Positions 1 to 17,385 are shown, counted from the first letter of the stretch. The stretch: DNA of 64,000 bases from Thermoanaerobaculia bacterium (GCA_035525285.1 DATLFB010000044.1:108441-172440); one strand, 5' to 3'. Program-made: numbers and translations. Notes: generated by a model not told the origin, from the sequence alone.

Positions 1-475
1 TGCCGGCGAGCACGCGCGCGAGGAAGACGCGCTTCCGCTCGCCGCCGCTCATCTCGTCGAGGTAGCGGTCGGCGAGATGCGACGCGTCGCACATCGCGAG
101 CGCGCGCGAGGCTTCTTCCCAATCGCGATCGGTTTCCCACGCGAAGCGCCCGAGAAACGGCGCCCGGCCCGAGAGAACCACTTCGATCGCGCGCATCGGA
201 AACGCGGGATCGGGATCCTGCGGGAGATATCCGACGCGGCGCGCGTATTCCTTCGCATGCCACTGAGCGAGCGGCTTGTCTTCGAAGAGCACGTCGCCGC
301 CGTGCGGCGCGAGAACGCGCGCGACGAGCTTCAGCAGCGTCGACTTGCCCGAGCCGTTCGGGCCCGTGAGCGCGACGAGCTGCCGCTCGCCGATCGCCAG
401 CTGTACGTCGCGCACGGCGGCAACATCGGCGTAGGCGTACGAGACGGCGCGGAGCTCGAGCATCATCGTCGTCAT
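1..475 (-). CDS. ABC transporter ATP-binding protein (FecE/FepC/BtuD-like), partial; the C-terminus runs off the window edge
   Basis: I translated the minus strand from the ATG at 475-473 by hand: MTTMMLELRAVSYAYADVAAVRDVQLAIGERQLVALTGPNGSGKSTLLK...LDEMSGGERKRVFLARVLAG. This shows a Walker A (GPNGSGKST) and an ABC signature (MSGGERKRV). It is the last gene of an operon with the permease and binding protein upstream. It is absent from the ORF track only because it is truncated by the window edge. Confidence 0.75.
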   Translation of the reverse strand, partial: MTTMMLELRAVSYAYADVAAVRDVQLAIGERQLVALTGPNGSGKSTLLKLVARVLAPHGGDVLFEDKPLAQWHAKEYARRVGYLPQDPDPAFPMRAIEVVLSGRAPFLGRFAWETDRDWEEASRALAMCDASHLADRYLDEMSGGERKRVFLARVLAG

Positions 476-590
476 TGTGGACTGCGGCGACGCCAGTCGC
501 CGCTTTCTAACACGGCAGCAGGGCTGCCGTGCGCCGCGGCCCTGCCGCGGCGTTGGAAAGCGGCGACTGGCGTCGCCGCAGTCCAAAACG
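476..590. repeat. MITE-like element, first copy (TGGACTGCGGCGACGCCAGTCGCCGC ... GCGGCGACTGGCGTCGCCGCAGTCCA), filling the permease-ATPase intergenic gap
   Basis: Read directly in the sequence. Each inverted repeat is itself a hairpin (gcggcgac-nnnn-gtcgccgc). Confidence 0.85.
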
Positions 591-593
591 AGA

Positions 594-1565
594 TCACGAC
601 GACCTCCGCAGGAGCGAGAGGAAGAAGGGCACGCCGAGGATCGCGGTGAAGGCGCCGATGGGAAGCTCGGTCGTGCGCACGATCGTGCGCGAGGCGAGAT
701 CGGCGGCGACCACCAGCGTCGCGCCGCCGAGAGCGCAGAGCGGAAGGAGAAATCGGAAATCGCGGCGCCAGATCAGGCGGATGAGATGCGGCACGAGGAG
801 GCCGACGAAGCCGATGATGCCGCTCACGGCGACCGCGGCGCCGGTGATGATCGACGCGGCCGTGAAGCCGATCAGCTTCACGCGCTCGACGTCGACGCCG
901 CGCGCTTTCGCATCTTCCTCGCCGAAGACGAGCAGGCGCAGATCGTTGGCCACGAACGCGAGCACGATCATTCCGATCACGAGCAACGAGCTCACCAGCG
1001 CGACATTCGTCCACGTCGCTCCGAAGAGCGTTCCCATCATCCACTTCAGCGCGGCGGTGAGATCGCTTTGCGGCGAGAGTGAAAACGAGATGAGGATGAT
1101 CGCGGAGAAGAAGGCGTTGAGCACGAGTCCCGACAACAACAATCGCGTGGGATCGGTGTGATCGCGGCGGCGCGCGAGAGTGAAGACGGCGGCCGTCGCG
1201 AGAAGCGCGCCCGCGAAGGCAACGAGCGGTACGAGGCCGGGAATGCGGCTCCACTGGAACGCCGTCGCGACGGCCGCGCCACACGCGGCGCCGCCGGAGA
1301 CGCCGAGGATGAAGGGATCGGCGAGCGGATTGCGGAGAAGCGTCTGGAACGTGACGCCCGCGACGGCGAGCGTCGCGCCGATCGCGGCCGCGAGGAGCAC
1401 TCGCGGAAGACGCAGACGAAAGAGGATCATGCGCGCGGTCTCGTCGTTGAAGTCGAGCGCCACCGCGCCGAACGACAACGCGAGGACGATGGCGATGAGC
1501 AGGATGAACGTGAGAACGATGAGCGGTTGCGCGGTTGCGCGGTCACGCGGTTGCGCGCTTGCCAT
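594..1565 (-). CDS. FecCD-family ABC permease (BtuC/FhuB-like iron-siderophore/cobalamin importer)
   Basis: The 323-aa product is hydrophobic and multi-pass, with FecCD-like motifs (LLLSGLVLNAFFSA, GIIGFVGLLVPHLIRL). It lies in an operon with a binding protein and an ATPase. Confidence 0.85.
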   Translation of the reverse strand: MASAQPRDRATAQPLIVLTFILLIAIVLALSFGAVALDFNDETARMILFRLRLPRVLLAAAIGATLAVAGVTFQTLLRNPLADPFILGVSGGAACGAAVATAFQWSRIPGLVPLVAFAGALLATAAVFTLARRRDHTDPTRLLLSGLVLNAFFSAIILISFSLSPQSDLTAALKWMMGTLFGATWTNVALVSSLLVIGMIVLAFVANDLRLLVFGEEDAKARGVDVERVKLIGFTAASIITGAAVAVSGIIGFVGLLVPHLIRLIWRRDFRFLLPLCALGGATLVVAADLASRTIVRTTELPIGAFTAILGVPFFLSLLRRSS

Positions 1566-1568
1566 GGC

Positions 1569-1847
1569 TCACCGCAAAACCGCGAGACCGCGAGACTGCG
1601 AAACCGCATCCGGCGGTTGCACCGACTTGAACGTGAATGCCGCCGGCGACGGCCCGCGCTCTTCGAGTTGCGCGAGGCGCGTCTTCGCCTCATCGACGCC
1701 GGGGATGTGCCCCGCGGGAACCCACCACAGCGCGGCGTACGCGCCTTCGAAGTGCTCGAACCACTCCCGGCGCGCGCGCAGCAGATCCGCGTGCGCGGTC
1801 TTGTAGACGTAGTCCTTCAGGTTCACCTGGGCGATGTGATGCGTCAT
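1569..1847 (-). CDS. hypothetical 92-aa protein inside the ABC importer operon
   Basis: It overlaps the stop of the upstream binding-protein gene by 4 nt and sits 4 nt before the permease start, which suggests translational coupling. I recognise no domain. Confidence 0.45.
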   Translation of the reverse strand: MTHHIAQVNLKDYVYKTAHADLLRARREWFEHFEGAYAALWWVPAGHIPGVDEAKTRLAQLEERGPSPAAFTFKSVQPPDAVSQSRGLAVLR

Positions 1848-2710
1848 CGAGTTCTCGCATCCAGTATCGCATTGAGCGCCGCCGCGGCCAGCACCACGCG
1901 CGGGCCGGGACGCTGGAAGACGTCCTCGTCGACGGGGACGACTTCCGCGCGCAGCGACGGGACGCGCTGCATCAGCACCTTCATCTGCTGCGGCGTCACC
2001 GCGCCGCGCGGATAGAGAATGAGATCGGGCGGAGAGGCGGCGAGCGACTCGAGCGAGTACTGCGGCCAGCCCGTGACCTGCACCGCATTTTGTGCACCGG
2101 TGAGCCGCAGCAGATCGTCGGTGAACGTGTTGCGGCCGGCGACGTAGAGCGGATCGGTCCAGACGGCGAAGAGGATGCGCAGCGGGCGCTCGCGCTTGCG
2201 CGACTGGCGGAGGATGTCCTCGCGCAGACGGCGCGGCGCATCGTTTGTTCCGGAGGCGTGCAGCAACTCGCCGAGACGCCGCATGGCCGGCTCGATCTCA
2301 TGCAGGCGATCGGTGCGCACGACGTACAGAGGGATGCCCGCGGCCTCCAGCGCCTGCGCGAGATTCGGATGATTCCCTTCGGTCGATGCGATGATGAGAT
2401 CAGGCTTCAGCGCCGCGATCTTCTCGACGTTCGGCTGCATCCCGCCGACCTTCGGCAGCGCGCGCGCGGGGGGCGGGAAGTTGGAGAAATCGTCGGTCCC
2501 GGCGAGCTTGTCGCCCGCGCCGAGGGCGAAGACGATCTCGGTGAGATTGGGGGCGAGGGAAACGACGCGATGGATTTCATTCGGCAGCGTGACGGCGCGG
2601 CCGAGGTCGTCGTGTGTGGTGACCGCACGCTCAACGCAGGAGGCGAAGAGGACGCAAACGATGAACGATGAACGATGAACGATGAACGATGAGCGCGGGA
2701 CCCGATTCAT
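1844..2710 (-). CDS. periplasmic substrate-binding protein, TroA/BtuF/FecB-like (class III SBP)
   Basis: Contains HRVVSLAPNLTEIVFALGAGDKLAGTDDF, typical of cobalamin/siderophore-binding proteins. A possible lipobox (LFASC) follows the N-region. The N-terminal codons overlap a heptamer-repeat hairpin, so the start codon is uncertain. Confidence 0.8.
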   Translation of the reverse strand: MNRVPRSSFIVHRSSFIVCVLFASCVERAVTTHDDLGRAVTLPNEIHRVVSLAPNLTEIVFALGAGDKLAGTDDFSNFPPPARALPKVGGMQPNVEKIAALKPDLIIASTEGNHPNLAQALEAAGIPLYVVRTDRLHEIEPAMRRLGELLHASGTNDAPRRLREDILRQSRKRERPLRILFAVWTDPLYVAGRNTFTDDLLRLTGAQNAVQVTGWPQYSLESLAASPPDLILYPRGAVTPQQMKVLMQRVPSLRAEVVPVDEDVFQRPGPRVVLAAAALNAILDARTR

Positions 2711-2749
2711 CGTTCATCCTTCATCGTTCATCGTTCATCGTTCATCGTT
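2657..2749. repeat. mirror tandem-array hairpin: (AACGATG)x5, a 16-nt spacer, then (CATCGTT)x6
   Basis: The unit copies can be read directly in the sequence. The same unit family recurs at 22447-22540. Confidence 0.9.
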
Positions 2750-2818
2750 CGCCGCCAGCCACAAACAAAAACCGCGGCCCGAAGCCGCGGTCGTCCGAGA
2801 ACCGGCGAGCGAGGGTGT

Positions 2819-3049
2819 TTACCCTTCACCGCCCTCTTCGTCTTCGAGGTCGTTCGCCACGCCGAGGCGGTTGCAGGCGGCGGCATACATCTGCTTCGAG
2901 GCGTTGATGGCATTCTGAAGATCGGCGATGCGGTCCTTCACCTTCGCGAGCTCTTCCTCGATCTGATCCTTCAGATCGCTGACCTCCTGCCTGGTCACCG
3001 TGAGCGTGGTCTCGTAGAACTTTCGTTGCTGATCCGTCAGAACCGCCAT
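2819..3049 (-). CDS. small coiled-coil protein, 76 aa (ZapB-like in appearance only)
   Basis: A GGAGGGAG Shine-Dalgarno sits 5 nt upstream of the ATG. Coiled-coil heptads are visible (DLKDQIEEELAKVKDRIADLQNAI). It lies immediately downstream of the kinase gene. Confidence 0.5.
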   Translation of the reverse strand: MAVLTDQQRKFYETTLTVTRQEVSDLKDQIEEELAKVKDRIADLQNAINASKQMYAAACNRLGVANDLEDEEGGEG

Positions 3050-3074
3050 CTCGACTCCCTCCAGCGAATTTCTA

Positions 3075-5882
3075 TCATAGCTTGAAGTCCACGGGCACCG
3101 TGATCCACGACTTCACGCGCACGCCATCGACGGTTCCGGGCGTGAACGTGGAGCGGCGCATCGTCTGCTCCGCGGCCTCGTTGAGACCGACCGGGCGATT
3201 GACGCCGCGGATGATGCGCACTTCCATCACCTGGCCGCTCTCCGACACGAGGACGCTCGTCAGCACCGTCCCCTGGACGCGCTGCATGCGCGCGATCGGC
3301 GGATACGGCACGCTGCCGCGGCGCAGAACGCGCGGCGGAGTCAGACCGGCGGTGCCGGCGGCGACGAGCTCTCCTTCGCGAACCGCGGCGCGTGCGGGCG
3401 CCGCGGGCACGGGCGCGGGCTCCTGCTGAGCCGGCGCGGGCGCGGGCTCCTGTTGCACGGGCGCGGGTGCCGGACGCGTCGTCTCTGCCTGTTGCGGCGG
3501 CGGTTGCTGCTGCACGGGCGCCGGAGCGACCGGCTGCGGACGCACGGCAGCGGTCGTCGGCGTCTGCGTCGTTGCACTCGGTTGCTGCGCGCGCGCCTGT
3601 GCTTCGAGCCGCGCACGTTCGGCGGCGAGCCGCTTCTGCACTTCCTGATCGACGAGCGACGGATCGAGCGTCGCGGTTGCGGGCGACGTCGCCGTTGCAT
3701 CGGTCGTTGCCGGCGCAACGCCCGTTGCCGGGGCCGCGGGCGCCTGCGTTCCGGCCGACGCGGTGACCGCGGGTGCAGGCGTCGCGCTCTTGCCTTTCAT
3801 CAGCATCCACGCCACGCCGCCGAGGGCGAGGAGAACGACGGCGCCGATGACGATGATCGGCACCGCCGACGACTTCTTCCGCACCGGCTGTTCCCACGGT
3901 TCCGGCGCGGCGGACGCGGGCTCGACGCGCGCTGCGGCGGCCGGCGCAGCCGCGACGGGCACAGCCGCGATCGGTGCGGGTTTCGGCGCCGGCGCGGGCG
4001 CGGGAGTCGGAGCAACCGGCTCCGGCTCGGGCGCGGGGATCATCACCGGCTCGGTGCTCGACATGCGATGCATGTAGATCGCGAGATCGGCGCTGGTCGG
4101 CGTCGGCTTGAAGGTGTAGAGGATCTGATCGATGTCGCGCGCCATCTCGCCCGCGGTCTGATAACGCGACGCGGAATCTTTCTGCAGTGCCTTGAACACG
4201 ACCGCATCGATTTCCGGCGTGACTTCCTCGTTGAACTGCGAGGGCGGCGTGACGCGCGCCTCGCGCACCTGCTCGAGGATCGAGAGCTCGCTGTCGCCGG
4301 TGAAGAGCTTGCGATTCGTGAGCATCTCGAAGAGCACGGTCGCGAGCGCGAAGATGTCCGAGCGGCGATCGATCGAGCGGCCCCACGCCTGCTCCGGCGA
4401 CATGTACTGCAGCTTGCCCTTCAGCGCCCCGGCCTGCGTATGCGAGGCCTTCGACGCGGCCTTGGCGATGCCGAAGTCGCAGAGCTTGATGTCGCCTTCC
4501 TGCGAGATGAGCACGTTCTGCGGCGAGACGTCGCGATGCACGAGTCCCATCTCGCGCTCCTCGAAGTCCTTCTTGCGATGCGCGTAGTCGAGCGCGGAGG
4601 CGATCTTCGAGGCGATGAAGAGCGCCAGCTCGACGGCCATCGGATGATCGCGCTCTTCGCCGCGGCGCAGGATCGCCTTCAGATCGTACCCGTCGATGTA
4701 CTCCATCGCGATGTAGTACGAGTTCTGAATTTTTCCGAGGTCGTAGATGTGAATGATGTTGTTGTGATTGAGCTGCGCGGCGAGCTTCGCCTCGTCGACG
4801 AACATCTCGACGAAGTCCTGGTTGTCGGAGAGATGCGGAAGGATCTTCTTGATCGCGACGATCTTCTGGAATCCTTCCACGCCGCGCATGCGCGCCTTCC
4901 AGACTTCCGCCATTCCGCCGGTGGCGATCTTCTCGATCAGCACGTACTGGCCGAACTTGACGCCGTCCGTCGGCTCTTCTTCCTCGATGCGCGCGGCCTC
5001 CGGGGCGGCCTGCGGAAACACCGGCTGCGACACCGGCACGCGATCGGGAACGTAGGCCTGCATCCGCGCGGTGTTGAACTTCTTCTCCGGGACCGGCGCG
5101 GGTGGCGCGGCGGGAGGCGGCGCGGGTGCAGGTGCCGGCGGCGCGGGCACGGGCACATTGCCGCCGCTCGTCGTTTTGCGCGCGCTCTTCTCGAGACCGG
5201 AGAGCGTGTCGGAGAGCATCTTGTCGAGACCCGACGTCGATGTGCGCGGCGCTTTCGCCTGCTGCGCCGGCGGCGCGGCAGAGGGCGGCGGTACAGGCGC
5301 GGCCGGCTGCGCTTCCTTCCTCCGCTGCGGCATCAGGCCGGACAGCGTGTCCGCCACCATCTTGTCGACTTCGCTCGTCGATTTGCCCATCATCGTCTTT
5401 CTCGGCGCCGCCGGTTTCTCGTCTTCGAGGAGGTCGCCGAAGATCTCAGTGGAGGTCAGTCCGGGCTCGGCCGGACGAACCGTGAACTCGTCGTGCAGCG
5501 GCGCATCGGCGCGGATGCCGAGCATCTGCTGCACTTTGCCGAGGAACTCACTTTCGGAGTAGGGCTTCGGAAGGATGTCCGACGCGCCGACGCGCTGCGC
5601 GTCCGCCTTCGGACTCTTCCCGTTGTAGCCGGAGACGGTGAGAAGGATCGGCGTCTCCTGCAGCGGCTTGCGGCCGCGGATGTTGCGGATCAACTCCGTC
5701 GTGCTGACTTTGGGGACGACCGAGGAGAGGACGATGAGGCGCGGCGGCGAGCCGTCGAGAACGCGAATCGCCTCCTCTCCGTCCTTCGCGAACGTGGGGG
5801 TGAAGGGCTGGCCCGCCAGGGCCTGCCGCACGCGGTCGGTATAGCGAGGCTCGTACTCGACGACGAGAATGTTTTCAGACAT
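3075..5882 (-). CDS. multidomain membrane Ser/Thr protein kinase: N-terminal pseudo-receiver, Pro-rich linker with a repeated TSTSGLDKMLSDTLSGL motif, Hanks-type kinase, one TM helix, long Pro/Ala/Gln linker, and a C-terminal TonB_C domain
   Basis: Kinase motifs are present (ATGGMAEVWKA, HRDVSPQNVLIS, DFGIAKA). The receiver-like N-terminus lacks the phospho-acceptor Asp (LIVLSS). A hydrophobic helix (VPIIVIGAVVLLALGGVAWMLM) follows the kinase. The C-terminus (PYPPIARMQRVQGTVLTSVLVSESGQVMEVRIIRG...VPVDFKL) matches the TonB C-terminal fold. Confidence 0.85.
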   Translation of the reverse strand: MSENILVVEYEPRYTDRVRQALAGQPFTPTFAKDGEEAIRVLDGSPPRLIVLSSVVPKVSTTELIRNIRGRKPLQETPILLTVSGYNGKSPKADAQRVGASDILPKPYSESEFLGKVQQMLGIRADAPLHDEFTVRPAEPGLTSTEIFGDLLEDEKPAAPRKTMMGKSTSEVDKMVADTLSGLMPQRRKEAQPAAPVPPPSAAPPAQQAKAPRTSTSGLDKMLSDTLSGLEKSARKTTSGGNVPVPAPPAPAPAPPPAAPPAPVPEKKFNTARMQAYVPDRVPVSQPVFPQAAPEAARIEEEEPTDGVKFGQYVLIEKIATGGMAEVWKARMRGVEGFQKIVAIKKILPHLSDNQDFVEMFVDEAKLAAQLNHNNIIHIYDLGKIQNSYYIAMEYIDGYDLKAILRRGEERDHPMAVELALFIASKIASALDYAHRKKDFEEREMGLVHRDVSPQNVLISQEGDIKLCDFGIAKAASKASHTQAGALKGKLQYMSPEQAWGRSIDRRSDIFALATVLFEMLTNRKLFTGDSELSILEQVREARVTPPSQFNEEVTPEIDAVVFKALQKDSASRYQTAGEMARDIDQILYTFKPTPTSADLAIYMHRMSSTEPVMIPAPEPEPVAPTPAPAPAPKPAPIAAVPVAAAPAAAARVEPASAAPEPWEQPVRKKSSAVPIIVIGAVVLLALGGVAWMLMKGKSATPAPAVTASAGTQAPAAPATGVAPATTDATATSPATATLDPSLVDQEVQKRLAAERARLEAQARAQQPSATTQTPTTAAVRPQPVAPAPVQQQPPPQQAETTRPAPAPVQQEPAPAPAQQEPAPVPAAPARAAVREGELVAAGTAGLTPPRVLRRGSVPYPPIARMQRVQGTVLTSVLVSESGQVMEVRIIRGVNRPVGLNEAAEQTMRRSTFTPGTVDGVRVKSWITVPVDFKL

Positions 5883-5934
5883 GGAAGGGACTCATCGGCA
5901 TTTTCGGGGTTGTGAACGGCAATTTTGGCACACC

Positions 5935-6067
5935 GCGAGCCGAAGGTAAAAGGTAAAAGGAAAAAGGTAAAAGTGGCCAAGCCAGGATCCGCGCGTTTCG
6001 AGGCTCTGCCACTTTTGGCCTTTTACCTTTTACCCTTTGCCTTTTACCTTTTACCTTTTACCTTTTA
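5935..6067. repeat. mirror tandem-array hairpin with a GGTAAAA-type unit (about 4 copies), a 42-nt spacer, and TTTTACC-type units (about 7 copies)
   Basis: Read directly in the sequence (aaaggtaaaaggtaaaagg...ccttttaccttttaccctttgcc...). It lies in the rho 5' leader. Confidence 0.85.
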
Positions 6068-6231
6068 CCTCGCCCTCGCTTGCTTTTCCGAAAATCGTTT
6101 TGCATACTGTCGTCCGCACCTCGCGCGACGAACCATCCCGCTCGGCGTTGAGACCTGACTCTCCGCCACGACGTCGTCGGTTCCCAGAGACTCGAGAGGT
6201 GAAAGCTCAGTTGGCAGTTGATTGAGTTCAA

Positions 6232-7590
6232 ATGACACCAGAAGATCGCACTCCGCGTAAGCGGCGCCGGAGAAGACGCCGCGGGGGCGGCGCCGCAGCG
6301 CCGGGGCAATCACCCGCGTCCAACGGCAACGGCCCTTCACCAGGAAACGAAGCCGCTCCGCAGCAGTACGGCGGAGGCGGAGGAGGTCGGCGCCGCCGTC
6401 GCTCGCGCCGCGGCCGCAATCGCGGCGATGACCGTCCGCGGTCGCAGGAGAGCACCGCCTCTCTGCCGCCGCTCGACATCGAGCCGGGACAGCTCGTCCC
6501 CGCCAGCGGCGTGCTCTTCATCAAGCAGAACGGCGCCGGCATCCTCGTCGATCCGGCGAACAACTATCAAATGCAGCCGGGCGACGTGATCGTGCCGCGC
6601 TCGACGATCGAGAAGCTGCATCTGCAGGCGGGCCTGCTGATCGGCGGCACCGCGCGGCGCGCGGGCAACAACCTCGAGCTCGCCGGTCTCGAGACCGTCG
6701 AGGGCGTCGCGCTCGAGGAGTATCGGGAGTCGCGACGTCCCTTCTCCGAGCTCATCTCGATCGATCCGAACGAGATGTTCAAGCTCGAGACCGAGCCCGA
6801 GCGTCTGACCACGCGCGTGCTCGATCTGCTCTCGCCGATCGGCAGAGGGCAGCGATGCCTCGTCGTCGCGCCGCCGAAGGCGGGCAAGACGACCCTGCTG
6901 AAAGACATCGCCCACGGCGTGAACATGAATCACCCCGAGGTGATCCTGTTCGTGCTGCTGGTCGACGAGCGCCCCGAGGAAGTCACCGACTTCCGGCGCT
7001 CGGTCGAGCAGGGCGAGGTGGTCGCGTCGAGCTCGGACGAAACGGCGGACAGCCACATCCATCTCGCCGAGATCATCCTCGAGCGCGCACGCCGGCTCGT
7101 CGAGATCAAGAAAGACGTCGTGATTCTCTGCGACTCCATCACGCGCATGTCGCGCGCGTACAACAACGAGCAGCGAGGATCGGGAAAGATTCTCTCGGGC
7201 GGCATCGACGCGCGGACGATGGAGAAGCCGCGGCGCTTCTTCGGCGCGGCGCGCAATGCCGAGGACTGGGGATCGCTGACGATCGTCGCCACGGCGCTGG
7301 TCGACACCGGCTCGCGCATGGATGAAGTCATCTTCCAGGAGTTCAAGGGAACCGGAAACACGGAGATCATGCTCGACCGCGGATTGTTCGAGCGGCGCAT
7401 CTTCCCGGCCATGAACATCGCGCAGACCGGCACGCGCAAGGAGGAGAAGCTCCTTCCGCCCACCGTGCTGTCGAAGATTCACACGCTCCGCCGCGCGCTC
7501 GCCGGGACCGATCCGATGACGGCGATGAAGATGCTGCTCGAGCGGCTGCAGAAGTTCCCGTCGAACGAGGCGTTTTTGAAGAGCTTTTGA
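6232..7590 (+). CDS. rho: transcription termination factor Rho
   Basis: The RecA-like core is present (GQRCLVVAPPKAGKTTLLKDIAHG, VLLVDERPEEVTD) with the Q and R loops. The N-terminus carries an Arg/Gly-rich low-complexity segment before the OB fold. Confidence 0.9.
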   Translation: MTPEDRTPRKRRRRRRRGGGAAAPGQSPASNGNGPSPGNEAAPQQYGGGGGGRRRRRSRRGRNRGDDRPRSQESTASLPPLDIEPGQLVPASGVLFIKQNGAGILVDPANNYQMQPGDVIVPRSTIEKLHLQAGLLIGGTARRAGNNLELAGLETVEGVALEEYRESRRPFSELISIDPNEMFKLETEPERLTTRVLDLLSPIGRGQRCLVVAPPKAGKTTLLKDIAHGVNMNHPEVILFVLLVDERPEEVTDFRRSVEQGEVVASSSDETADSHIHLAEIILERARRLVEIKKDVVILCDSITRMSRAYNNEQRGSGKILSGGIDARTMEKPRRFFGAARNAEDWGSLTIVATALVDTGSRMDEVIFQEFKGTGNTEIMLDRGLFERRIFPAMNIAQTGTRKEEKLLPPTVLSKIHTLRRALAGTDPMTAMKMLLERLQKFPSNEAFLKSF

Positions 7591-7594
7591 GGGG

Positions 7595-7668
7595 CCGTGC
7601 TGCGTGCTACGTGCTGCGTGCTGAGGGGTTAACGCAGCACGTTGAACGCAGCACGCAGCACTCCAGAT
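7595..7668. repeat. mirror tandem-array hairpin with GTGCTGC units on one arm and GCAGCAC units on the other
   Basis: gtgctgcgtgctacgtgctgcgtgctgag ... acgcagcacgttgaacgcagcacgcagcac. It lies between the rho stop and the TonB-dependent receptor promoter. Confidence 0.85.
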
Positions 7669-7814
7669 TACCGAATCGTTGCTACACATTTTTGAACCCA
7701 ACCTTCTCCTTGACTTAGCCCAAAACCGACATCACCATTCGCACCACAGCCCAGAATCATGAGAGGATCACCCGGTCCGAAGTCTTCATTTTTCAACGTC
7801 CGTCAGGAGGATCT

Positions 7815-10800
7815 ATGTCCGTTTCACGTCGTTTGAGTTTGTTTGTGGTCCTGAGCTTGTTCGTGCTCGCGCCTGCGGCGATCGCCCAGGTCACGACAGG
7901 CAATCTCGGAGGAGAGGTGACCGCAGGGGGAGACGGCAGTGCGCTCCCCGGCGTCACGATCGAAGCAGTCCATGTTCCCACCGGAACGCGTTATGGCACG
8001 GTGAGCGGCGGCAACGGCCGGTACCTGATCCCGAACGTGCGCGTCGGCGGGCCGTACACGGTCACCGCGAATCTGTCGGGATTCCGTCCCGCCGAGGTCA
8101 CGGGCGTGAGCGTTCCGCTCGGCGGCACGACCAATGTTGCGATCAAGCTTCAGCTGGAAGCGGTGTCGGAAGCGATCACCGTGACCGCCGACGTCGATCC
8201 GATCATCAATCCGAACCGGACCGGCGCAACGTCGGCCGTGTCGGAAGAGCAGATCGAATCGCTGCCGACGGTGAATCGCAGTCTGCAGGATTTCGCGCGC
8301 ACGAATCCGTACTTCAACGTCGATCCGATCGACGCGACGTCGACGCGCATGACCGTCGCCGGCAAGAACAACCGCTACAACACCGTTCAGATCGACGGCG
8401 CGGTCAACAACGATCTGTTCGGTCTCGCCGACACGGGCACGCCGGGCGGCCAGGCGGACCTGCAGCCGATCGCGATCGATGCCATTCAGGAACTGCAGCT
8501 CGTCGTTTCACCGTATGACGTCCGCCAGGGCGGATTCACCGGCGGCGGCGTGAATGCCATCACCCGTTCCGGAACGAATGACTTCCACGGCTCCGTCTTC
8601 TACACCAAGCGCGACTCCTCGTACGTCGGCGACGGCCCTAACGAGGTCGAGGTCGACGAATTCGACTTCGAACAGTACGGCGGCCGCCTGGGAGGACCGA
8701 TCCTGCGCGACCGTCTCTTCTTCTTCGTCACCGGTGAAACGACGAAGCGTCAGGAGCCCACGGGCGTTTCCGCGGAGGCTGGCAGCCCCTCGGTGAGCGC
8801 GACGATCGCCGGTCTTGCCGCACAGGCCGCGGCGATCGCGAAGTCGAAGTATGGTTACGATCCCGGATCGCTCGGCGATTTCCCGGAGGCTCGCGACGGC
8901 GACAATCTGTTCGGCCGTCTCGACTGGAACATCGGATCGTCGCACCAACTCACGCTGCGCCACAACTACGTGGAAGGCGCCCGTGACGTCGTCTCCGACC
9001 GTTTCTTCACTCGCTTCCGCTTCGAGAGCTCGACCTACGCGTTCGCCAGCGAGACCAACTCCACGGTCGCGCAGCTGAACAGCACGTTCGGCGCAAACTC
9101 CTACAACGAGGCGCGCGTCGGACTGCAGACCATCAAAGAGCAGCGCGCGGTCCCGACGGTGTTCCCCTCCATCGAGATCGGCGGCGCACCGCGCGCCGCG
9201 CAGATCATCCTCGGCACGGAGCGTTTCTCCGGCGCCAACGCGCTCGATCAGGACATCCTCGAAGTCACCGATGACTTCACCTGGCTGCGCGGCAATCACA
9301 CCATCACCGTCGGCACCCACAACGAGTTCTTCGAGTTCAAGAACCTGTTCATGTCCGATGCGTACGGCTACTACTTCTTCCCGACCATCGCCGACTTCGA
9401 AGCCGGCAGGCCGCGCGAGTACAGCATCACGTTCGCCACGGGCAGCAATCCGCGCCGCCCGACGCAGTTCGAGGTCGCCCAGTACGGAATCTACGTGAGC
9501 GATCAGTGGCGCGTGAACGACGCCGTGGCGCTGACGATGGGCGTGCGCGCCGACATGCCGCGCTTCGCTGACACGCCGAGCCATAACCCGGCCGTCCTCG
9601 CCGCGATCGGTTTCGACACGGCCGAGACAGCGTCGGAGAGCGCAGTGATCTCGCCGCGCTTCGGCTTCAACTGGCAGCCCGGCGGCACCGGTACGCAGCA
9701 GGTTCGCGGCGGCATCGGCGTCTTTACCGGCCGCACGCCGTATGTCTGGATCTCCAACGCCTACGGCAACACGGGCGTCGAACAGGTCGCGCTGAGCTGC
9801 AGTGGCCTGGGCTGCACGCCGTTCGTGACCGATCCGCTGAACCAGCCGAGGGACTTCCCCCCCGGCACGGGCGCGTTCTCGGTCGATCTGATCGATCCCG
9901 ACTTCCAGCTCCCGCGCGTTCTCCGCGCCACGCTCGGCTACGACCGTGAGCTGTTCGCCGGCATCCGCGGCACGGCGGAAGTGGTCTGGACGAAGAACCT
10001 CGAAGATGTCTACTACCACAACGTGAACAAGGTCCAGACCGGCACGAGCCCGCTCGACGGACGTCCGCGGTACGGCAACGTCAGCACTTCCATGCGCGAT
10101 GCGATCCTGCTCACCAACACGGACAAGGGCGAGCAGCGCATTCTCTCGCTGCAGGTCAACAAGTCGTTCAGCCGCGGCTTCGCATTCTCGGCTTCCTACG
10201 CGAATCAGGACGCGAAGTCGGGCTTCGACGGAACGTCCAGCCGCGCCATTTCCAACTGGCAGTTCCACCACACCAAAGGCGACATCTTCAACGCCGAGGA
10301 ATCGCGCTCGGCGTTCGAGATCGAGCATCGCTTCACCGTGTCCACGAGCTGGAACTTCTCGACCGGCCCGGTCGGACACACGCTCGCGTTCTACTACAAC
10401 GCGCAGTCGGGCCGTCCGTACTCGCTGCTCTTCGGCACGGACATCAACGGCGACGGATACTCGACGAACGACCTGCTCTACGTCCCCGCCGCCGGCAATG
10501 TGATCATCCAGAAGAACGCCGGCTCCACGTGGTCGGCGAGCCCCGATCAGCAGTGGCTCAACTATCTCGAAGGCGCGGGGCTCGATGGGGATTGCGATTG
10601 CATTCTCGACCGCTACGCGAGCACCGAGCCGTGGTCGCGTCAGCTCGACCTGCACTACGAGCTCGGTCTCCCGGTGTACCGCGAGTTCCTCACCAACCTG
10701 ACGTTCGACGTGCTCAACGTGTTCAACATGTTCTCGAACGACAGCGGCGTCGTCCGCTTCGTGTCGAACCAGAACTTCCTGCCGGTAACGTATCAGGGTC

Positions 10801-10931
10801 AGGATGCGGCGACCGGCAAGCCGATCTATCGCGAGCGCTTCGCGAATGCTCTCGCGGTCGGCAGCCAGTTCTCGACCGCGGACATCCGCTCGCGGTGGCA
10901 GGCGCGTGTCGGCCTCCGCGTGACGTTCTAG
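7815..10931 (+). CDS. TonB-dependent outer-membrane receptor with an N-terminal carboxypeptidase-regulatory-like domain
   Basis: An AGGAGG Shine-Dalgarno precedes the start. The signal peptide is followed by NGRYLIPNVRVGGPYTVTANLSGF (CarboxypepD_reg-like). The 1038-aa product is beta-rich and ends in a C-terminal aromatic (LRVTF). Confidence 0.9.
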   Translation: MSVSRRLSLFVVLSLFVLAPAAIAQVTTGNLGGEVTAGGDGSALPGVTIEAVHVPTGTRYGTVSGGNGRYLIPNVRVGGPYTVTANLSGFRPAEVTGVSVPLGGTTNVAIKLQLEAVSEAITVTADVDPIINPNRTGATSAVSEEQIESLPTVNRSLQDFARTNPYFNVDPIDATSTRMTVAGKNNRYNTVQIDGAVNNDLFGLADTGTPGGQADLQPIAIDAIQELQLVVSPYDVRQGGFTGGGVNAITRSGTNDFHGSVFYTKRDSSYVGDGPNEVEVDEFDFEQYGGRLGGPILRDRLFFFVTGETTKRQEPTGVSAEAGSPSVSATIAGLAAQAAAIAKSKYGYDPGSLGDFPEARDGDNLFGRLDWNIGSSHQLTLRHNYVEGARDVVSDRFFTRFRFESSTYAFASETNSTVAQLNSTFGANSYNEARVGLQTIKEQRAVPTVFPSIEIGGAPRAAQIILGTERFSGANALDQDILEVTDDFTWLRGNHTITVGTHNEFFEFKNLFMSDAYGYYFFPTIADFEAGRPREYSITFATGSNPRRPTQFEVAQYGIYVSDQWRVNDAVALTMGVRADMPRFADTPSHNPAVLAAIGFDTAETASESAVISPRFGFNWQPGGTGTQQVRGGIGVFTGRTPYVWISNAYGNTGVEQVALSCSGLGCTPFVTDPLNQPRDFPPGTGAFSVDLIDPDFQLPRVLRATLGYDRELFAGIRGTAEVVWTKNLEDVYYHNVNKVQTGTSPLDGRPRYGNVSTSMRDAILLTNTDKGEQRILSLQVNKSFSRGFAFSASYANQDAKSGFDGTSSRAISNWQFHHTKGDIFNAEESRSAFEIEHRFTVSTSWNFSTGPVGHTLAFYYNAQSGRPYSLLFGTDINGDGYSTNDLLYVPAAGNVIIQKNAGSTWSASPDQQWLNYLEGAGLDGDCDCILDRYASTEPWSRQLDLHYELGLPVYREFLTNLTFDVLNVFNMFSNDSGVVRFVSNQNFLPVTYQGQDAATGKPIYRERFANALAVGSQFSTADIRSRWQARVGLRVTF

Positions 10932-10956
10932 TCCTCAGCCAACGCATCGACGGAAC

Positions 10957-10988
10957 GGCCGCCCGGCAACGGGCGGCCGTTTTTGTTT
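10957..10988 (+). terminator. rho-independent terminator after the TonB-dependent receptor gene
   Basis: A GC stem (ggccgcccg gcaa cgggcggcc) is followed by tttttgttt. Confidence 0.7.
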
Positions 10989-10998
10989 AGAGTGCGCC

Positions 10999-11832
10999 AT
11001 GCGCAAGACGATTCTCATCCTCGCACTCGTCGCCTCCGGCTGTGCGACGTCGACACCGCCGCAGGTCCAGCCGCAGCAGCAGTGCAATCCCGGCCACGCT
11101 CTGCTCAACGCAACGGTCTGGGTACAGAGCTCCGCCGAATATCGCGCCGCCGTCCTCGGCACATGGACCTCCGCGCGACGCGCGCTCGATGCGGCACTCG
11201 CCGATCCGTCGTGGAACGTCGAGGAGGGAACGAGCGATCCGGCGCAGCCGCCCGCGATCATCCTCGACGCGGACGAGACGGTCATCGACAACGCTTCCTA
11301 CGAGGCGCGCGTGATCAAGGCCGGAAAGTCGTACGACGCGGAGACATGGAAGCAGTGGGTCAGCGAGTCGGCGGCGCGCGCGGTTCCGGGCGCGGCGGAG
11401 TTCCTCGCCTGGGCGAAGAGCCGCGGCGTGACGCCGTTCTACATCACGAACCGCGATCATCCCGAGGAGGCGGAGGGAACGCTGCGCAATCTGCAGAACC
11501 TCGGCTATCCGCTCGACCCGAACGTCGACACGCTGCTACTGCGCGGCGAGCGTCCGGAGTGGAAGTCCGACAAGGGATCGCGCCGCGCGCACGTCGCGTC
11601 GAGCTATCGCGTGCTGCTGCTCTTCGGCGACGACCTCAATGACTTCGCGAACGCGCGCGACAAGAGCGCGGCCGAGCGCGAGGAGATCGTGCGCAGCAAC
11701 GCGAGCCGCTGGGGCACGCAGTGGTTCATGATCCCGAATCCGATGTACGGCTCGTGGGAACGCGCGATCACCGCAGGCACCGGCACGCCGTGCGAACAGG
11801 TGCAGAAGAAGGTGGATTCGCTGCGGCCGTAG
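10999..11832 (+). CDS. HAD class B acid phosphatase / 5'-nucleotidase, lipoprotein e(P4) family
   Basis: A lipobox (LVASGC) is present, with the HAD motifs DADETVIDN and LLFGDDLNDF. Confidence 0.8.
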   Translation: MRKTILILALVASGCATSTPPQVQPQQQCNPGHALLNATVWVQSSAEYRAAVLGTWTSARRALDAALADPSWNVEEGTSDPAQPPAIILDADETVIDNASYEARVIKAGKSYDAETWKQWVSESAARAVPGAAEFLAWAKSRGVTPFYITNRDHPEEAEGTLRNLQNLGYPLDPNVDTLLLRGERPEWKSDKGSRRAHVASSYRVLLLFGDDLNDFANARDKSAAEREEIVRSNASRWGTQWFMIPNPMYGSWERAITAGTGTPCEQVQKKVDSLRP

Positions 11833-11857
11833 AGCTCTGCATAGGTTGCATTCGCTC

Positions 11858-11965
11858 GTCATCCCGAGCGTGAGCGAGGGACCTGGGGGCTCGGGAGGGC
11901 GCATGAATGTTCGTTTCTCGCCCCGCCCAACCACCCAGGTTCCTCGCTCACGCTTCGGAATGACA
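11858..11965. repeat. large palindromic element of the GTCATYCCGAGCG...CGCTCGGRATGAC family (translates as SLTLGMT)
   Basis: gtcatcccgagcgtgagcgagggacc ... ggttcctcgctcacgcttcggaatgaca. It lies between convergent genes. The same family occurs at 47700-47770 and 60761-60854. Confidence 0.85.
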
Positions 11966-12013
11966 ACTTCTGCAGAGTTCCTTTTTGGCTCCCGAGCTGG
12001 AGCAGGTCGCGCG

Positions 12014-12865
12014 CTAAAGATCTACGCGAGACGCTTCATGAGTTCGCGCCGGCCGCGCCGAAGCGCTTCGGTGATTGCGAGTACGACTTCGCGAAACGAT
12101 CTCCGGCCACACTTCGTGAATCGCGGCCGCCCATCCCGCCGGTCCGGGGAACGGCGCGATGCGCGCGGCGGGCACGTTCGCGAGCAGCTCCGCGTCAGGC
12201 GTGCCTTCCGCGGACGGAACGACGATGGCGATGTCCGCGCGGCTCAGAAACTCGGCATCGACCGGCGTGCCGCCGAGCGCGATGGCTGCCTCGCAACGCA
12301 GTTCTTCGCGAAGGCACAGGAATGCTTTCCCTTCATCGCACGCGCGGCGGAGATGGAAGAACGTTCGTCCGCGGCGGATCGAGAATCCGAGGGACGCCGC
12401 CGCCTGCGCCACTTTCTCGACGTCCCCGCTTTCGATCACGAACGGTTCGCTGAAGCAGCGCCGCGTCGAGCGGCGGAGGATCTCGCCCGAACGGCCTGAG
12501 AGCAGCGCCGCCTCGGCTGCGGGCAACGCCGAGTACACGAGCAATCCGGCGCCGGAAAGCTCTTCGATCTCCCGGATCACATCGAGCAGCGTGTCCGCGG
12601 CGGGGCCGCACTCTTCGACGTCCCACCGGCTGCCGCTCCATCGCGCAATCGCTCCGCCGGCCTCGATGATCATCGCGTCGCGGAATCCGAGCTCCCGCGC
12701 GATGGGCTCGATCTCCTCGAGCGTCATCACCGTCACCGGAACGACCGGAACGCCCGCGCTCTGCAGCCGGCGCAGCGGCGTACGAATCGCACTGCTGTCG
12801 AGGGTGACGGGATCGAGCAGTATGCCGTCGACCGCCGTGAACACGGCGCGACTCGGGATGTCCAT
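12014..12865 (-). CDS. HAD-IIB family hydrolase (mannosyl/glucosyl-3-phosphoglycerate phosphatase-like)
   Basis: The N-terminal motif VFTAVDGILLD matches HAD motif I. It is divergent from otsA. Confidence 0.6.
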   Translation of the reverse strand: MDIPSRAVFTAVDGILLDPVTLDSSAIRTPLRRLQSAGVPVVPVTVMTLEEIEPIARELGFRDAMIIEAGGAIARWSGSRWDVEECGPAADTLLDVIREIEELSGAGLLVYSALPAAEAALLSGRSGEILRRSTRRCFSEPFVIESGDVEKVAQAAASLGFSIRRGRTFFHLRRACDEGKAFLCLREELRCEAAIALGGTPVDAEFLSRADIAIVVPSAEGTPDAELLANVPAARIAPFPGPAGWAAAIHEVWPEIVSRSRTRNHRSASARPARTHEASRVDL

Positions 12866-13018
12866 CCCGGCACGGTAGATCCAGACGGCGCCGGTCTCAA
12901 TCCGGCAAAGGGGGGAGACGTGCCGGGCTCACCTGTGACTTTCACATGGGGCCTCCCCCGCAGACCGGATGTACATCGACGCGGGCCGGTTCTAACGTGC
13001 GCCACGGAGAGAGCGAAC

Positions 13019-14581: not shown

Positions 14582-15282
14582 TCGCGCAGCCGGTGCTGCT
14601 CGCGTTCGACTTCGACGGCACGCTCGCACCGATCCGCGAAGATCCCGTGGAGGTGCGGATGAACCGTGCCGCCACCGCGCTGCTCGAGGAAGCGTCGCGC
14701 ATGGAAGGAATCGTGGTGGCGATCGTGTCGGGACGCGACGCGGACGATCTCGCCGCGCGCACGCACACGCCCGGCGCGTACCTCATTGCGTCGCATGGCC
14801 TGGAGATCCGCGCGCCGGGCGGCGTGCTCGTGCGCGACGCCCCGCCGCTGCAGGCGGACCTCGATTCCGAGCTCCGCGGCGAGATCGAGGCGAGCGGCCT
14901 GCGGCTCGAGGCGAAGAAGCACGCGCTCGCACTGCACTGGCGCGGAATCCCGTTCCAGGCGATCGCGCCGGTGGCCGAGCTCTTCCGTGCATGGGCGCGC
15001 GAGGCGGATCTCGACGTAATCGAAGGCCGGTGCGTGGTCGAGGCCCGTTGCCGCGGCGGCGGGAAGGAACAGGCCCTGCGCTGGCTGGCGGGCGTCATCG
15101 GCGCCTCACGCGTCATCTACGCCGGCGACGACCTCACCGACTTCGGCGCGCTCCGTTTCGCGGCGGCGCATGGACGGGGCGTCTTCGTCGCCAGCGACGA
15201 GCGCAGCGCACCTCCCGACGTGACCGTCGTCGCGTCCTTTCGCGAGCTCTACCGCGTCATCCGTGAGGAAGTGATGATGTGA
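14578..15282 (+). CDS. otsB: trehalose-6-phosphate phosphatase (HAD-IIB)
   Basis: Contains LLAFDFDGTLAPI and YAGDDLTDF. Its start overlaps the otsA stop. Confidence 0.8.
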   Translation: MIAQPVLLAFDFDGTLAPIREDPVEVRMNRAATALLEEASRMEGIVVAIVSGRDADDLAARTHTPGAYLIASHGLEIRAPGGVLVRDAPPLQADLDSELRGEIEASGLRLEAKKHALALHWRGIPFQAIAPVAELFRAWAREADLDVIEGRCVVEARCRGGGKEQALRWLAGVIGASRVIYAGDDLTDFGALRFAAAHGRGVFVASDERSAPPDVTVVASFRELYRVIREEVMM

Positions 15283-17316: not shown

Positions 17317-17333
17317 CGCTGTTATCCTTCGAG

Positions 17334-17381
17334 GAGGGCGGACGTCTCGTCCGCCCTGGCGGACGGGACGTCCGCCCTCCA
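17334..17381. repeat. nested palindromic element GGAGGGCGGACGTCYCGTCCGCC-N-GGCGGACGGGACGTCCGCCCTCC
   Basis: An exact inverted repeat. Each arm is itself a palindrome. The element ends 4 nt before the kinase ATG at 17386. Further copies at 50728, 59982 and 62503 lie inside coding genes. Confidence 0.9.
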
Positions 17382-17385
17382 TACC

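Follow-up and report, generated by a model that had tools for sequence, protein, structure and literature searches.

A pseudo-receiver, a Hanks-type kinase and a periplasmic TonB_C arm in one conserved protein of Thermoanaerobaculia: a candidate receptor kinase of the diderm envelope

The window, that is, the whole stretch of 64,000 nucleotides analysed here, derives from a Thermoanaerobaculia bacterium and carries near its beginning a gene for an unusual protein kinase. The gene is on the minus strand, running from an ATG at 5882-5880 to a TGA at 3077-3075 (ORF list and translation), and encodes 935 amino acids; a longer N-terminus is ruled out by an in-frame stop three codons upstream of the ATG. 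The protein is 100% identical to the NCBI entry 'TonB family protein [Thermoanaerobaculia bacterium]'. The gene, its parts and its neighbours are as follows, with the basis of each assignment in brackets:

about 1-2710, minus strand: ABC importer with Peripla_BP_2, FecCD permease and ABC ATPase (domain search)
2770..2792, minus strand: intrinsic terminator closing the unit of the kinase and the small gene (10-bp stem with 7 GC pairs, then TTTTGTTTG)
2819..3049, stop included, minus strand: 76-aa single-helix protein with an acidic tail (GGAGGG upstream; start 26 nt after the kinase stop)
3075..5882, stop codon included, minus strand: whole gene of the pseudo-receiver/Hanks kinase/TM/TonB_C protein (ORF list, translation)
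3078..3383, minus strand: TonB_C domain plus a family-specific N-terminal extension (REGELV..G..GL.PP), aa 834-935 (Pfam, NCBIfam)
3384..3797, minus strand: periplasmic spacer rich in Ala/Thr/Pro/Gln, aa 696-833 (composition, conservation)
3798..3866, minus strand: single TM helix, aa 673-695 (only Kyte-Doolittle window above 1.6; AF2 helix)
4113..4967, minus strand: Hanks-type Ser/Thr kinase domain, aa 306-590 (Pfam Pkinase; PknB the closest solved structure)
5193..5225, minus strand: linker motif B copy 2, DKMLSDTLSGL, aa 220-230 (conservation; predicted helix)
5334..5366, minus strand: linker motif B copy 1, DKMVADTLSGL, aa 173-183 (conservation; predicted short helix)
5433..5456, minus strand: linker motif A, TSTEIFGD, aa 143-150 (conservation in the homologue alignment)
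5517..5882, minus strand: Asp-less (pseudo-)receiver, aa 1-122 (Pfam Response_reg, PleD alignment, Foldseek)
6232-7590, plus strand: rho, between the kinase and the receptor
7815-10931, plus strand: TonB-dependent receptor with CarboxypepD_reg, Plug and barrel (domain search)

A preliminary description had read the 935-aa product as a receiver-like N-terminus joined to a Hanks kinase, a TM helix and a TonB_C domain. These domain calls stand: Response_reg, Pkinase and TonB_C each exceed their Pfam cut-offs. Long spurious ORFs arise in high-GC genomes, and several database relatives are visibly frameshifted fragments, as would be expected if two or three genes had been joined here by a frameshift or by chimeric assembly. 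Against such an artefact, all domains share a single frame, with start and end conserved among homologues, and the full-length architecture recurs: the same four Pfam hits are found in more than 120 full-length homologues from independent 90%-identity clusters, and the architecture is also present in 304 species-level genomes or loci and in 58 divergent 50%-identity clusters. On the strength of this recurrence we reject a fusion artefact, the chance of which is negligible, and regard the locus as one gene rather than two merged ORFs. The named full-length homologues all belong to Thermoanaerobaculia or Acidobacteriota, and the kinase-TonB_C protein is conserved across one class of Acidobacteria. 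Low-GC branches of the family have GC contents of 31-47%. Full-text literature searches and look-ups in kinome papers gave no description of the combination of kinase, TonB_C and pseudo-receiver.

The N-terminal domain matches Response_reg over residues 5-117 (38.7 bits against a cut-off of 30.2, E 1.3e-9), and its model (AF2, pLDDT about 80) is recognized by Foldseek as a receiver fold, with TM 0.89 to RR468 and 0.83 to the FrzS pseudo-receiver 2i6f. Mean column identity over 30 homologues is 0.93. In an alignment with PleD, S53 (in LIVLSS) takes the position of the acceptor Asp (PleD D53) and E9-Y10 replaces the DD pair, while K106 is retained; the acceptor Asp is lost in nearly all of 69 divergent relatives. 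The 935-aa protein thus lacks the phospho-acceptor Asp and the acidic Mg2+-binding pair. Since the fold is kept and these residues are lost, we file the domain as a pseudo-receiver, in agreement with the earlier reading of the N-terminus as receiver-like and Asp-less. The same combination of a kept fold, a lost acceptor Asp and acidic pair and a retained Lys is seen in the D2 adaptor domain of PleD and in FrzS of M. xanthus, which has an Asp-less receiver domain (PMC1974792). Unlike those, the present domain sits N-terminal to a Hanks kinase, has Ser at the acceptor position and precedes the conserved TLSG motifs, which are acidic and amphipathic. A search with residues 1-303 alone returned fragments and frameshifted copies of the kinase-TonB_C family, then generic receivers and nothing else; by this measure the N-terminal module is family-specific.

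Two kinds of short motif mark the linker between pseudo-receiver and kinase. Motif A has T143, S144, F148, G149 and D150 invariant in the homologue alignment (A1), and its pattern [ST][ST]x[DE][IL]F[GSA][DE] (short form TSx[DE][IL]FG[DE]) is present in most divergent relatives. Motif B occurs twice. D173, M175, D178, T179, L180 and G182 are invariant in the first copy and D220, D225, T226, L227 and G229 in the second (alignment A1); a short helix is predicted at 170-180 with low pLDDT (AF2), and another at 219-227. The family-wide pattern is [DE]xxLxxTLSG[LVM]. The preliminary description's doubled motif is therefore present and conserved in two copies, which are not identical: residues 167-183 read STSEVDKMVADTLSGL and residues 214-230 read TSTSGLDKMLSDTLSGL. 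Across the 69 divergent relatives, conservation reaches 0.91 for T226 and 1.00 for L227: the TLSG motif is under selection, and the doubled motif is an ancient hallmark of the family rather than a chance repeat. A loose similarity links the motif to the tail with which CheZ binds CheY (QVDDLLDSLGF, a verified sequence), but the match needs a gap and we take it as a lead only.

The kinase domain is strongly supported. Pkinase (PF00069) matches residues 313-575 with 142.4 bits against a cut-off of 31.7 (E 2e-41), and among solved structures M. tuberculosis PknB is the nearest relative (E 3e-49). The whole signature is there, as had been claimed: the G-loop G322/G323, K345, E364, HRD449-451, N456, DFG469-471, SPE495-497, D509 and R573, all conserved at 0.99 or above in the 69 divergent relatives. 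T482 of the activation loop aligns with PknB T171, and mean column identity is 0.95 (30 homologues). The kinase is accordingly predicted to be catalytically complete. Sister proteins keep receiver and kinase and lack TonB_C, and one of them carries TPR instead, a pattern that reads as the module swapping typical of receptor-kinase sensor domains.

C-terminal to the kinase, the protein has the layout of TonB. The TM segment coincides with an AF2 helix at 675-695 and is preceded on its N-terminal side by a Lys/Arg cluster; as the sole hydrophobic helix it agrees with the single-pass, N-in/C-out topology proposed earlier. The helix is variable, with column identity of about 0.5 compared with 0.93-0.95 for pseudo-receiver and kinase, and it contains no His, either here or in 68 of 69 relatives. 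The spacer is as long and as Pro/Ala/Gln-rich as had been described: residues 768-833 are 29% P, 26% A and 17% Q, and the family-wide median length of 166 aa is comparable to or above that of TonB. Within it lies a clade-conserved helix (aa 738-767, window 3582-3671; 741-765 in the AF2 model). TonB_C (PF03544) matches residues 859-935 with 58.7 bits against 24.6 (E 7.8e-16) and NCBIfam tonB_Cterm (TIGR01352) gives 48.5 bits against 27.1, so that the domain passes profile search in two databases; phmmer also matches the arm with solved TonB C-terminal domains. YP860-861, G871, G883, F933 and the C-terminal strand are conserved, and pLDDT is about 90 (AF2). Identity is 27-48% to the kinase-linked TonB_C of six other branches and only 30% over 76 residues to a canonical TonB; the kinase-linked domains are mostly closer to each other than to a canonical TonB, which suggests a distinct subfamily. 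A full-length AF2 model built from 30 near-identical sequences has receiver and TonB_C modelled with confidence, the kinase mis-modelled and the linkers disordered. Given this low confidence for the kinase and the linker motifs, the model lends no support to intramolecular docking and is no guide to contacts between domains.

The 76-aa protein encoded directly downstream is the sole neighbour conserved across the kinase-TonB_C family: it follows the kinase in 73 of 80 related loci with 67-94% identity and is also present in all five distant lineages. AF2 predicts one helix at 6-62 (pLDDT 89). There are 1140 relatives, and among those listed the length is 75-112 aa, nearly always 76. No curated family matches it in Pfam, NCBIfam or PDB, where only sub-threshold coiled-coil noise was returned. 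The JGI label "ElaB/YqjD/DUF883" was rejected, the match being weak (E 9e-4, below cut-off) and the membrane anchor absent. Downstream of the small gene, 44 of 71 related loci have a hairpin and T-run similar to the terminator at 2770..2792, as against 10 of 219 random controls. Kinase and partner are thus predicted to form a separate two-gene transcription unit that ends in this terminator. We also considered whether the gap between kinase and importer, or the rest of 1-12000, contains a riboswitch or another known RNA, and discarded the idea: Rfam in E-value mode gave only sub-threshold "miRNA" hits on long hairpins. The gap between kinase and importer holds a protein gene and a terminator, not a known RNA.

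How, then, is the protein to be understood? The preliminary description placed it between a TonB-dependent receptor and an ABC importer and implied a functional link with both. The two flanks are indeed at 7815-10931 and about 1-2710; rho, the small gene and the terminator lying in between had gone unmentioned. Further neighbours of the kinase gene include a phosphatase gene. Gene order in the close clade is highly conserved (rho in 59 of 59 loci, a TBDR-like gene in 48 of 50, PBP in 49 of 49, FecCD in 35 of 43), and in the receptor the CarboxypepD_reg domain is followed by a TonB-box-like stretch, SEAITVTAD. Both observations would favour a protein that reports ligand occupancy of this very receptor, tied to the importer, in the manner of FecA/FecR with a kinase output. 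In concept the likeness to FecR/FecA is real, as a single-pass inner-membrane protein could relay the status of an outer-membrane receptor to a cytoplasmic regulator. However, the receptor lies beyond rho on the opposite strand, its position is taken by a different paralogue in 13 of 48 close-clade loci (<50% identity, about 25-36% in the listed loci), and the terminator separates the kinase unit from the importer. Domain search finds only CarboxypepD_reg, Plug and barrel in the receptor, with no STN signalling domain, and no FecR hit in the kinase; there is no ECF sigma factor either, the output here would be Ser/Thr phosphorylation, and the periplasmic domain is TonB_C. In five of five distant lineages, rho, receptor and importer are absent from the vicinity of the kinase gene, and the flanks are unrelated housekeeping genes. 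We therefore reject synteny as functional evidence, and with it the implied link; signalling by the neighbouring receptor in particular is very improbable. The close-clade arrangement looks like local, lineage-specific gene order rather than function, and could still be a lineage-specific functional link. The more general notion of a protein that signals across the envelope through a Ser/Thr kinase stands, as do the domain calls and the topology.

The layout of N-in TM anchor, Pro-rich spacer and TonB_C, with its YP motif and terminal beta-strand, is shared with TonB of the E. coli type and would also suit an energy-transducing TonB or TolA-like paralogue under the control of its own cytoplasmic kinase and pseudo-receiver. 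In one distant lineage (locus L081) an exbB-exbD-exbD-tonB cluster even lies divergently upstream. That cluster, though, has its own canonical 242-aa TonB with His in the TM, and in the other four distant loci with called genes exbB and exbD are absent. Around the kinase gene, neither exbBD nor a second TonB_C occurs in the window, and 79 of 80 loci likewise lack them; exbBD is not adjacent in the other loci examined either. The TM helix is unconserved (about 0.5), with no His on the SxxxH face in 68 of 69 relatives, and sister proteins have dropped TonB_C and kept the kinase. Some functional TonB homologues may do without the canonical TM His, so its absence weakens the transducer reading rather than excluding it. 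The cytoplasmic signalling region, moreover, spans about 670 aa as against about 10 residues in TonB, and the TonB_C, extended by an N-terminal segment, appears to form a subfamily apart. TM and genomic context together lead us to reject canonical TonB, and a kinase-regulated transducer is improbable. The database name "TonB family protein" is misleading, as key features of an energy-transducing TonB are missing from the protein. The topology is shared with GltJ/AgmX and GltG of the M. xanthus Agl-Glt gliding machinery: GltJ, part of a working envelope machine, has an extensive regulatory region in the cytosol, a single TM helix, a flexible spacer and a TonB_C domain, and its linker motifs are switch elements (PMC11135422). 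Its cytosolic modules are ZnR and GYF in place of receiver and kinase and its partners are the AglRQS motor and MglA/AglZ; Pfam finds neither ZnR nor GYF in the 935-aa protein, and there are no glt/agl neighbours.

The closest solved relatives of the kinase domain are those of the PASTA receptor kinases (M. tuberculosis PknB, S. pneumoniae StkP, S. aureus PknB/Stk1), with which it shares an RD-type catalytic loop, the aligned activation-loop Thr and the order of kinase, juxtamembrane linker, single TM helix and extracytoplasmic ligand-binding domain. The differences are several: the sensor is a TonB_C that sits in a diderm periplasm at the end of a long Pro-rich spacer, the kinase is preceded by a pseudo-receiver and about 180 aa of motif-bearing linker, and a small helical partner is obligatory. 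Pfam finds no PASTA repeats, and NCBIfam NF033483 (Stk1/PknB) scores 315 bits against a cut-off of 450 and matches only from kinase through TM (311-714). A diderm analogue of the PASTA kinases acting in envelope growth or division, with TonB_C bound to peptidoglycan or an outer-membrane lipoprotein and the partner as a DivIVA/GpsB-like coiled-coil substrate, would agree with the closeness to PknB, StkP and PknA, with the column identity of 0.93-0.95 in pseudo-receiver and kinase, with a location amid housekeeping genes (rho here; accD/folC, pyr, rib and ruvC elsewhere) and with a partner that is a single long helix like small coiled-coil division proteins. We consider it rather unlikely: Pfam finds no SPOR or LysM domains any more than PASTA, a Pro-rich spacer of this length points to contact with the outer membrane rather than with the wall, the kinase gene has no division or cell-wall genes as regular neighbours, and the partner matches no known division family.

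Our preferred reading is that of a receptor-type, PknB-like Hanks kinase that spans the diderm envelope, with the TonB-like arm as sensor or anchor and not as energy transducer. In its general form, as a receptor kinase, we hold this to be probable; the statement as a whole is about evenly poised, and TonB boxes as the ligand of the arm are a possibility that we hold with some doubt. Pseudo-receiver, motif-bearing linker and kinase would lie in the cytoplasm, anchored by one non-specific TM helix, and the spacer of about 140 Pro/Ala/Gln/Thr-rich residues would carry TonB_C toward the outer membrane. By likeness to other TonB_C domains, the arm would serve as sensor or anchor, docking by beta-strand pairing on TonB-box-like segments of outer-membrane proteins generally and not of the neighbouring receptor specifically. 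Docking or clustering could unite kinase domains for trans-autophosphorylation on T482, as in PknB. The two conserved linker motifs, TLSG and TSxEIFGD, may, like the small helical partner, be phospho-acceptors, docking elements or both, and the Asp-less receiver may be a phosphorylation-independent module for regulation or dimerisation. The protein itself would not be an ExbBD-energised transducer. Peptidoglycan or a lipoprotein as the TonB_C ligand fits the anatomy equally well as TonB boxes. A more detailed version is speculative and rather unlikely to hold in full: a motorless TonB-like arm would read the exposure of TonB boxes on substrate-loaded receptors and convert it to Ser/Thr phosphorylation, with the receiver gating the kinase by binding its own TLSG motifs and the 76-aa partner carrying the output.

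Receptor Hanks kinases are understood mainly in monoderms, where PASTA domains sense cell-wall fragments; how diderms would employ them to read the outer membrane is, to our knowledge, little understood. The present family is a defined and widely conserved candidate, in which a spacer long enough to cross the periplasm bears TonB_C, the kinase's sole extracytoplasmic domain. It offers four experimental handles, namely the TonB_C arm, the two linker motifs, the pseudo-receiver and the dedicated partner protein. If the arm binds TonB boxes, the "loaded receptor" signal would be readable by a protein other than TonB and fed into phosphorylation networks. Were the detailed version to prove true, Thermoanaerobaculia would possess a third trans-envelope signalling device, beside FecR/ECF and two-component systems.

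The 935-aa open reading frame of the kinase gene (window 3075..5882, minus strand) is intact in both the ORF list and its translation. Its start is fixed by an in-frame stop three codons 5' of the ATG, and the N-terminus of the product, MSENILVVEYEPRY, is kept in 70 related loci. Pfam makes three domain calls on the protein, each exceeding the curated cut-off, and NCBIfam concurs on the C-terminal one (tonB_Cterm).

Layout of the kinase protein by residue, with mean column identity among 30 close homologues (TM helix and linkers, about 0.5-0.6)
5-117, Response_reg (Pfam, above cut-off), the pseudo-receiver; 0.93
173-183, linker motif copy DKMVADTLSGL
220-230, linker motif copy DKMLSDTLSGL
313-575, Pkinase (Pfam, above cut-off); 0.95
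673-695, the sole hydrophobic helix, preceded by Lys/Arg
696-833, spacer, high in Ala, Thr, Pro and Gln
859-935, TonB_C (Pfam, above cut-off); 0.82

Aligned with PleD, the receiver has Ser53 at the position of the phospho-acceptor Asp and Glu9-Tyr10 at the acidic pair, and it retains Lys106; by superposition, the model matches the fold of receivers, the FrzS pseudo-receiver of Myxococcus among them. The kinase domain has a complete set of catalytic residues, and its activation-loop Thr482 lines up with PknB Thr171. PknB/Stk1 is the nearest NCBIfam model, and the score falls under that model's cut-off because the protein lacks PASTA repeats (none in domain profile searches). The preliminary description had proposed an Asp-less receiver, a doubled motif, a complete Hanks-type kinase, one TM helix, a Pro/Ala/Gln-rich linker and a TonB_C domain within a single real frame, and this anatomy stands.

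Nearly all of 69 divergent relatives have lost the acceptor Asp of the receiver and carry Ser, Thr, Ala, Asn, Val or Glu instead; three low-GC members retain it, but with Asn-Tyr at the DD pair. Two motifs in an otherwise variable linker are hallmarks of the family: TSx[DE][IL]FG[DE], directly after the receiver, and [DE]xxLxxTLSG[LVM], present in one to three copies per protein. The doubled motif, conserved family-wide, is therefore an ancient element under selection; the linker motifs have low confidence in the full-length AF2 model. The spacer between TM helix and TonB_C varies across relatives around a median of 166 residues. The kinase-linked TonB_C domains have a common N-terminal extension (GDLV..G.PGV.PP) and are mostly 38-53% identical between lineages, the exception being the family protein P0439 (27-36%); with the canonical 242-aa TonB of locus L081, which is encoded beside exbB-exbD-exbD, they share only 30-35%.

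The protein is 100% identical to the GenBank entry "TonB family protein [Thermoanaerobaculia bacterium]". The same four Pfam hits recur in at least 120 further clusters at 63-83% identity, and a scan of one genome per species yielded 304 loci. With this recurrence, an assembly artefact as the source of the gene is next to inconceivable, and the gene is not two joined ORFs, a possibility the preliminary description had wanted checked. The 80 loci retrieved of the 304 are all from Thermoanaerobaculia or Acidobacteriota MAGs, and these two taxa account for every family member bearing an organism name; the family also has branches on contigs of 31-47% GC. In a search of 1.84 billion representatives clustered at 50% identity, the 150 best matches include 58 clusters with pseudo-receiver, kinase and TonB_C, 26 with kinase and TonB_C whose N-terminus is too diverged for the narrow receiver profile, and 32 with pseudo-receiver and kinase without TonB_C. 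All nine checked proteins lacking TonB_C by the family profile also lack it by Pfam, one having TPR instead. These sisters (P0419, P0429, P0434, P0451, P0462, P0478, P0480, P0485 and P0389) share the same PknB-like kinase and, in most, the pseudo-receiver (by profile or Pfam); their C-terminal 200-250 residues have no Pfam match, apart from the one TPR. At its sensor end, the family seems to be modular.

The genes around the kinase, and the terminator that follows its small neighbour, are as follows.

Features surrounding the kinase gene in the window
extending past the window start, ABC ATPase
594-1565, minus, FecCD permease
1844-2710, minus, Peripla_BP_2 protein
2792-2770, minus, strong intrinsic terminator downstream of the small gene
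3049..2819, minus, small gene of 76 aa, its ORF start 26 nt past the kinase stop, GGAGGG upstream
6232-7590, plus, rho, between kinase and receptor
7815-10931, plus, receptor (CarboxypepD_reg/Plug/barrel)

The small gene and its terminator were missing from the earlier account of the locus. The gene immediately follows the kinase in 73 of 80 related loci (67-94% identity) and in all five distant lineages opened, where the products are 77-84 aa; the three of these that were translated are clear homologues. Identity between loci is higher for the small partner than for the kinase. Its predicted structure is one long helix (residues 6-62, pLDDT 89) followed by a disordered acidic tail. The partner matches no curated family and has 1140 database relatives, of which the 120 listed are 75-112 aa long, nearly all 76; GenBank names it 'hypothetical protein' and JGI, from a weak match, 'ElaB/YqjD/DUF883'. 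Of 71 related loci, 44 have a terminator-like hairpin after the small gene, as do 10 of 219 random controls; kinase and small gene therefore form a separate transcription unit.

The preliminary description named the receptor and the ABC importer correctly, omitted rho, and implied a functional tie of the kinase to the flanking receptor and importer. The receptor does carry a TonB-box-like peptide, VSEAITVTADVD, and within the close clade, the related loci with near-constant flanks, gene order speaks for such a tie: two blocks on opposite strands, one of acid phosphatase, receptor and rho, the next of kinase, small gene, binding protein and permease, are near-invariant (rho 59/59, receptor-like gene 48/50, binding protein 49/49, permease 35/43). 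However, rho intervenes between kinase and receptor, and in 13 of 48 close-clade loci the receptor slot is filled by a paralogue of <50% identity (those listed are at about 25-36%). Pfam finds no STN domain on the receptor and no FecR domain in the kinase protein, and no sigma factor is found among the neighbouring genes. Near the kinase, rho, receptor and importer are absent in 5/5 distant lineages, where housekeeping genes unrelated to these take their place: accD (in three), folC, genes for pyrimidines and riboflavin, and yebC-ruvC. That the kinase is coupled specifically to the receptor and importer beside it is thus quite improbable, and on these grounds we treat the flanks as what seems to be lineage-specific gene order and not a component of the system. 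In the distant lineages L081, L084 and L085, accD lies directly 3' of the kinase and small-gene pair (followed by folC in L084), an adjacency absent from the window's clade.

L081, a distant high-GC lineage, has a canonical exbB-exbD-exbD-tonB cluster (5757-8201, minus strand), coming after yebC and ruvC and divergently upstream of the kinase orthologue (10001-13894). Its 242-aa TonB, with a Lys/Pro-Glu/Pro spacer, was used as an internal control. Whereas the TM helix of this TonB contains His, that of the kinase family is variable and His-less in 68 of 69 divergent relatives; exbBD is absent from the surroundings of the gene in the window, and there are sister kinases without TonB_C. A true energy-transducing TonB or TolA paralogue is improbable in view of these differences, which lead us to argue for a kinase that uses TonB_C as its sensor rather than a TonB to which a kinase is attached. 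Beyond the demonstrated anatomy, topology signals, intact catalytic site, conservation pattern and two-gene unit, the protein is probably a receptor-type Hanks kinase with TonB_C as its extracytoplasmic module, on a spacer that would be long enough for the outer membrane. GltJ of Myxococcus, with a large cytosolic regulatory region, one TM helix, a flexible spacer and TonB_C, is a working precedent (PMC11135422), and the kinase protein has the same layout.

By homology, TonB_C would dock on a TonB-box-like beta-strand, its default ligand, and docking or clustering could lead to trans-autophosphorylation in the manner of PknB. Obvious candidates for phospho-acceptors or docking sites are the Thr of TLSG, the TSxEIFGD motif and the helical partner, and the Asp-less receiver may be a phosphorylation-independent regulatory module, as the Asp-less receiver of FrzS is (PMC1974792). 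Given a loose likeness between the TLSG motif and the tail by which CheZ binds CheY (the CheZ sequence was verified), the motif may bind the pseudo-receiver; we offer this as a lead only. That a motor-less TonB arm senses how far TonB boxes are exposed and signals through a Ser/Thr kinase is a tentative proposal, which we consider rather unlikely. A PknB-like growth or division kinase, its arm binding peptidoglycan or a lipoprotein, is possible but rather unlikely. The readings differ chiefly in the ligand, TonB box versus wall or lipoprotein.

Elsewhere in the window, tandem heptamers at 2654-2752 form a long hairpin in which (GAACGAT)n is opposite (ATCGTTC)n, the 42-nt arms being 93% complementary. 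Its 15-nt loop contains the ATG annotated for the gene of the periplasmic binding protein, and the first 19 codons of that gene (..SSFIVHRSSFIV..) come from the repeat. Initiation of translation could be blocked by the hairpin, or the real start codon may be located further downstream. A second heptamer hairpin, which has (GGTAAAA)n opposite (TTTTACC)n and 31-39-nt arms, occupies the divergent promoter region between kinase and rho (5935-6079); Rfam in E-value mode gave it a sub-threshold 'miRNA' match only. Together with two long palindromes, at 472-591 between FecCD permease and ABC ATPase (56-nt arms, 88% complementary) and at 11862-11959 after the acid phosphatase gene (38-nt arms, 82% complementary), these hairpins suggest a family of intergenic elements in this genome. 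The region 12014-15282 holds a trehalose-type cluster, with 553-aa and 234-aa ORFs that look like otsA and otsB; a divergent 283-aa ORF directly downstream of the class-B acid phosphatase has a HAD-like look and no Pfam hit. A histidine kinase, a LuxR-type response regulator and a second Hanks kinase follow in succession (15279-20028, plus strand). The Hanks kinase, of 880 aa, carries fused PD40/TolB-like beta-propeller repeats and is thus a further receptor kinase whose periplasmic domain comes from the Tol/TonB world.

Full-text literature searches on TonB with kinases or Thermoanaerobaculia, and look-ups in kinome papers, yielded no description of the kinase architecture or of the partner protein; family sequences are already public under the automatic name "TonB family protein". 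Each part falls into a known family, and single-pass receptor kinases are known as a general principle. What appears to be undescribed is the combination itself, its obligate partner, the linker motifs and conservation across the class.
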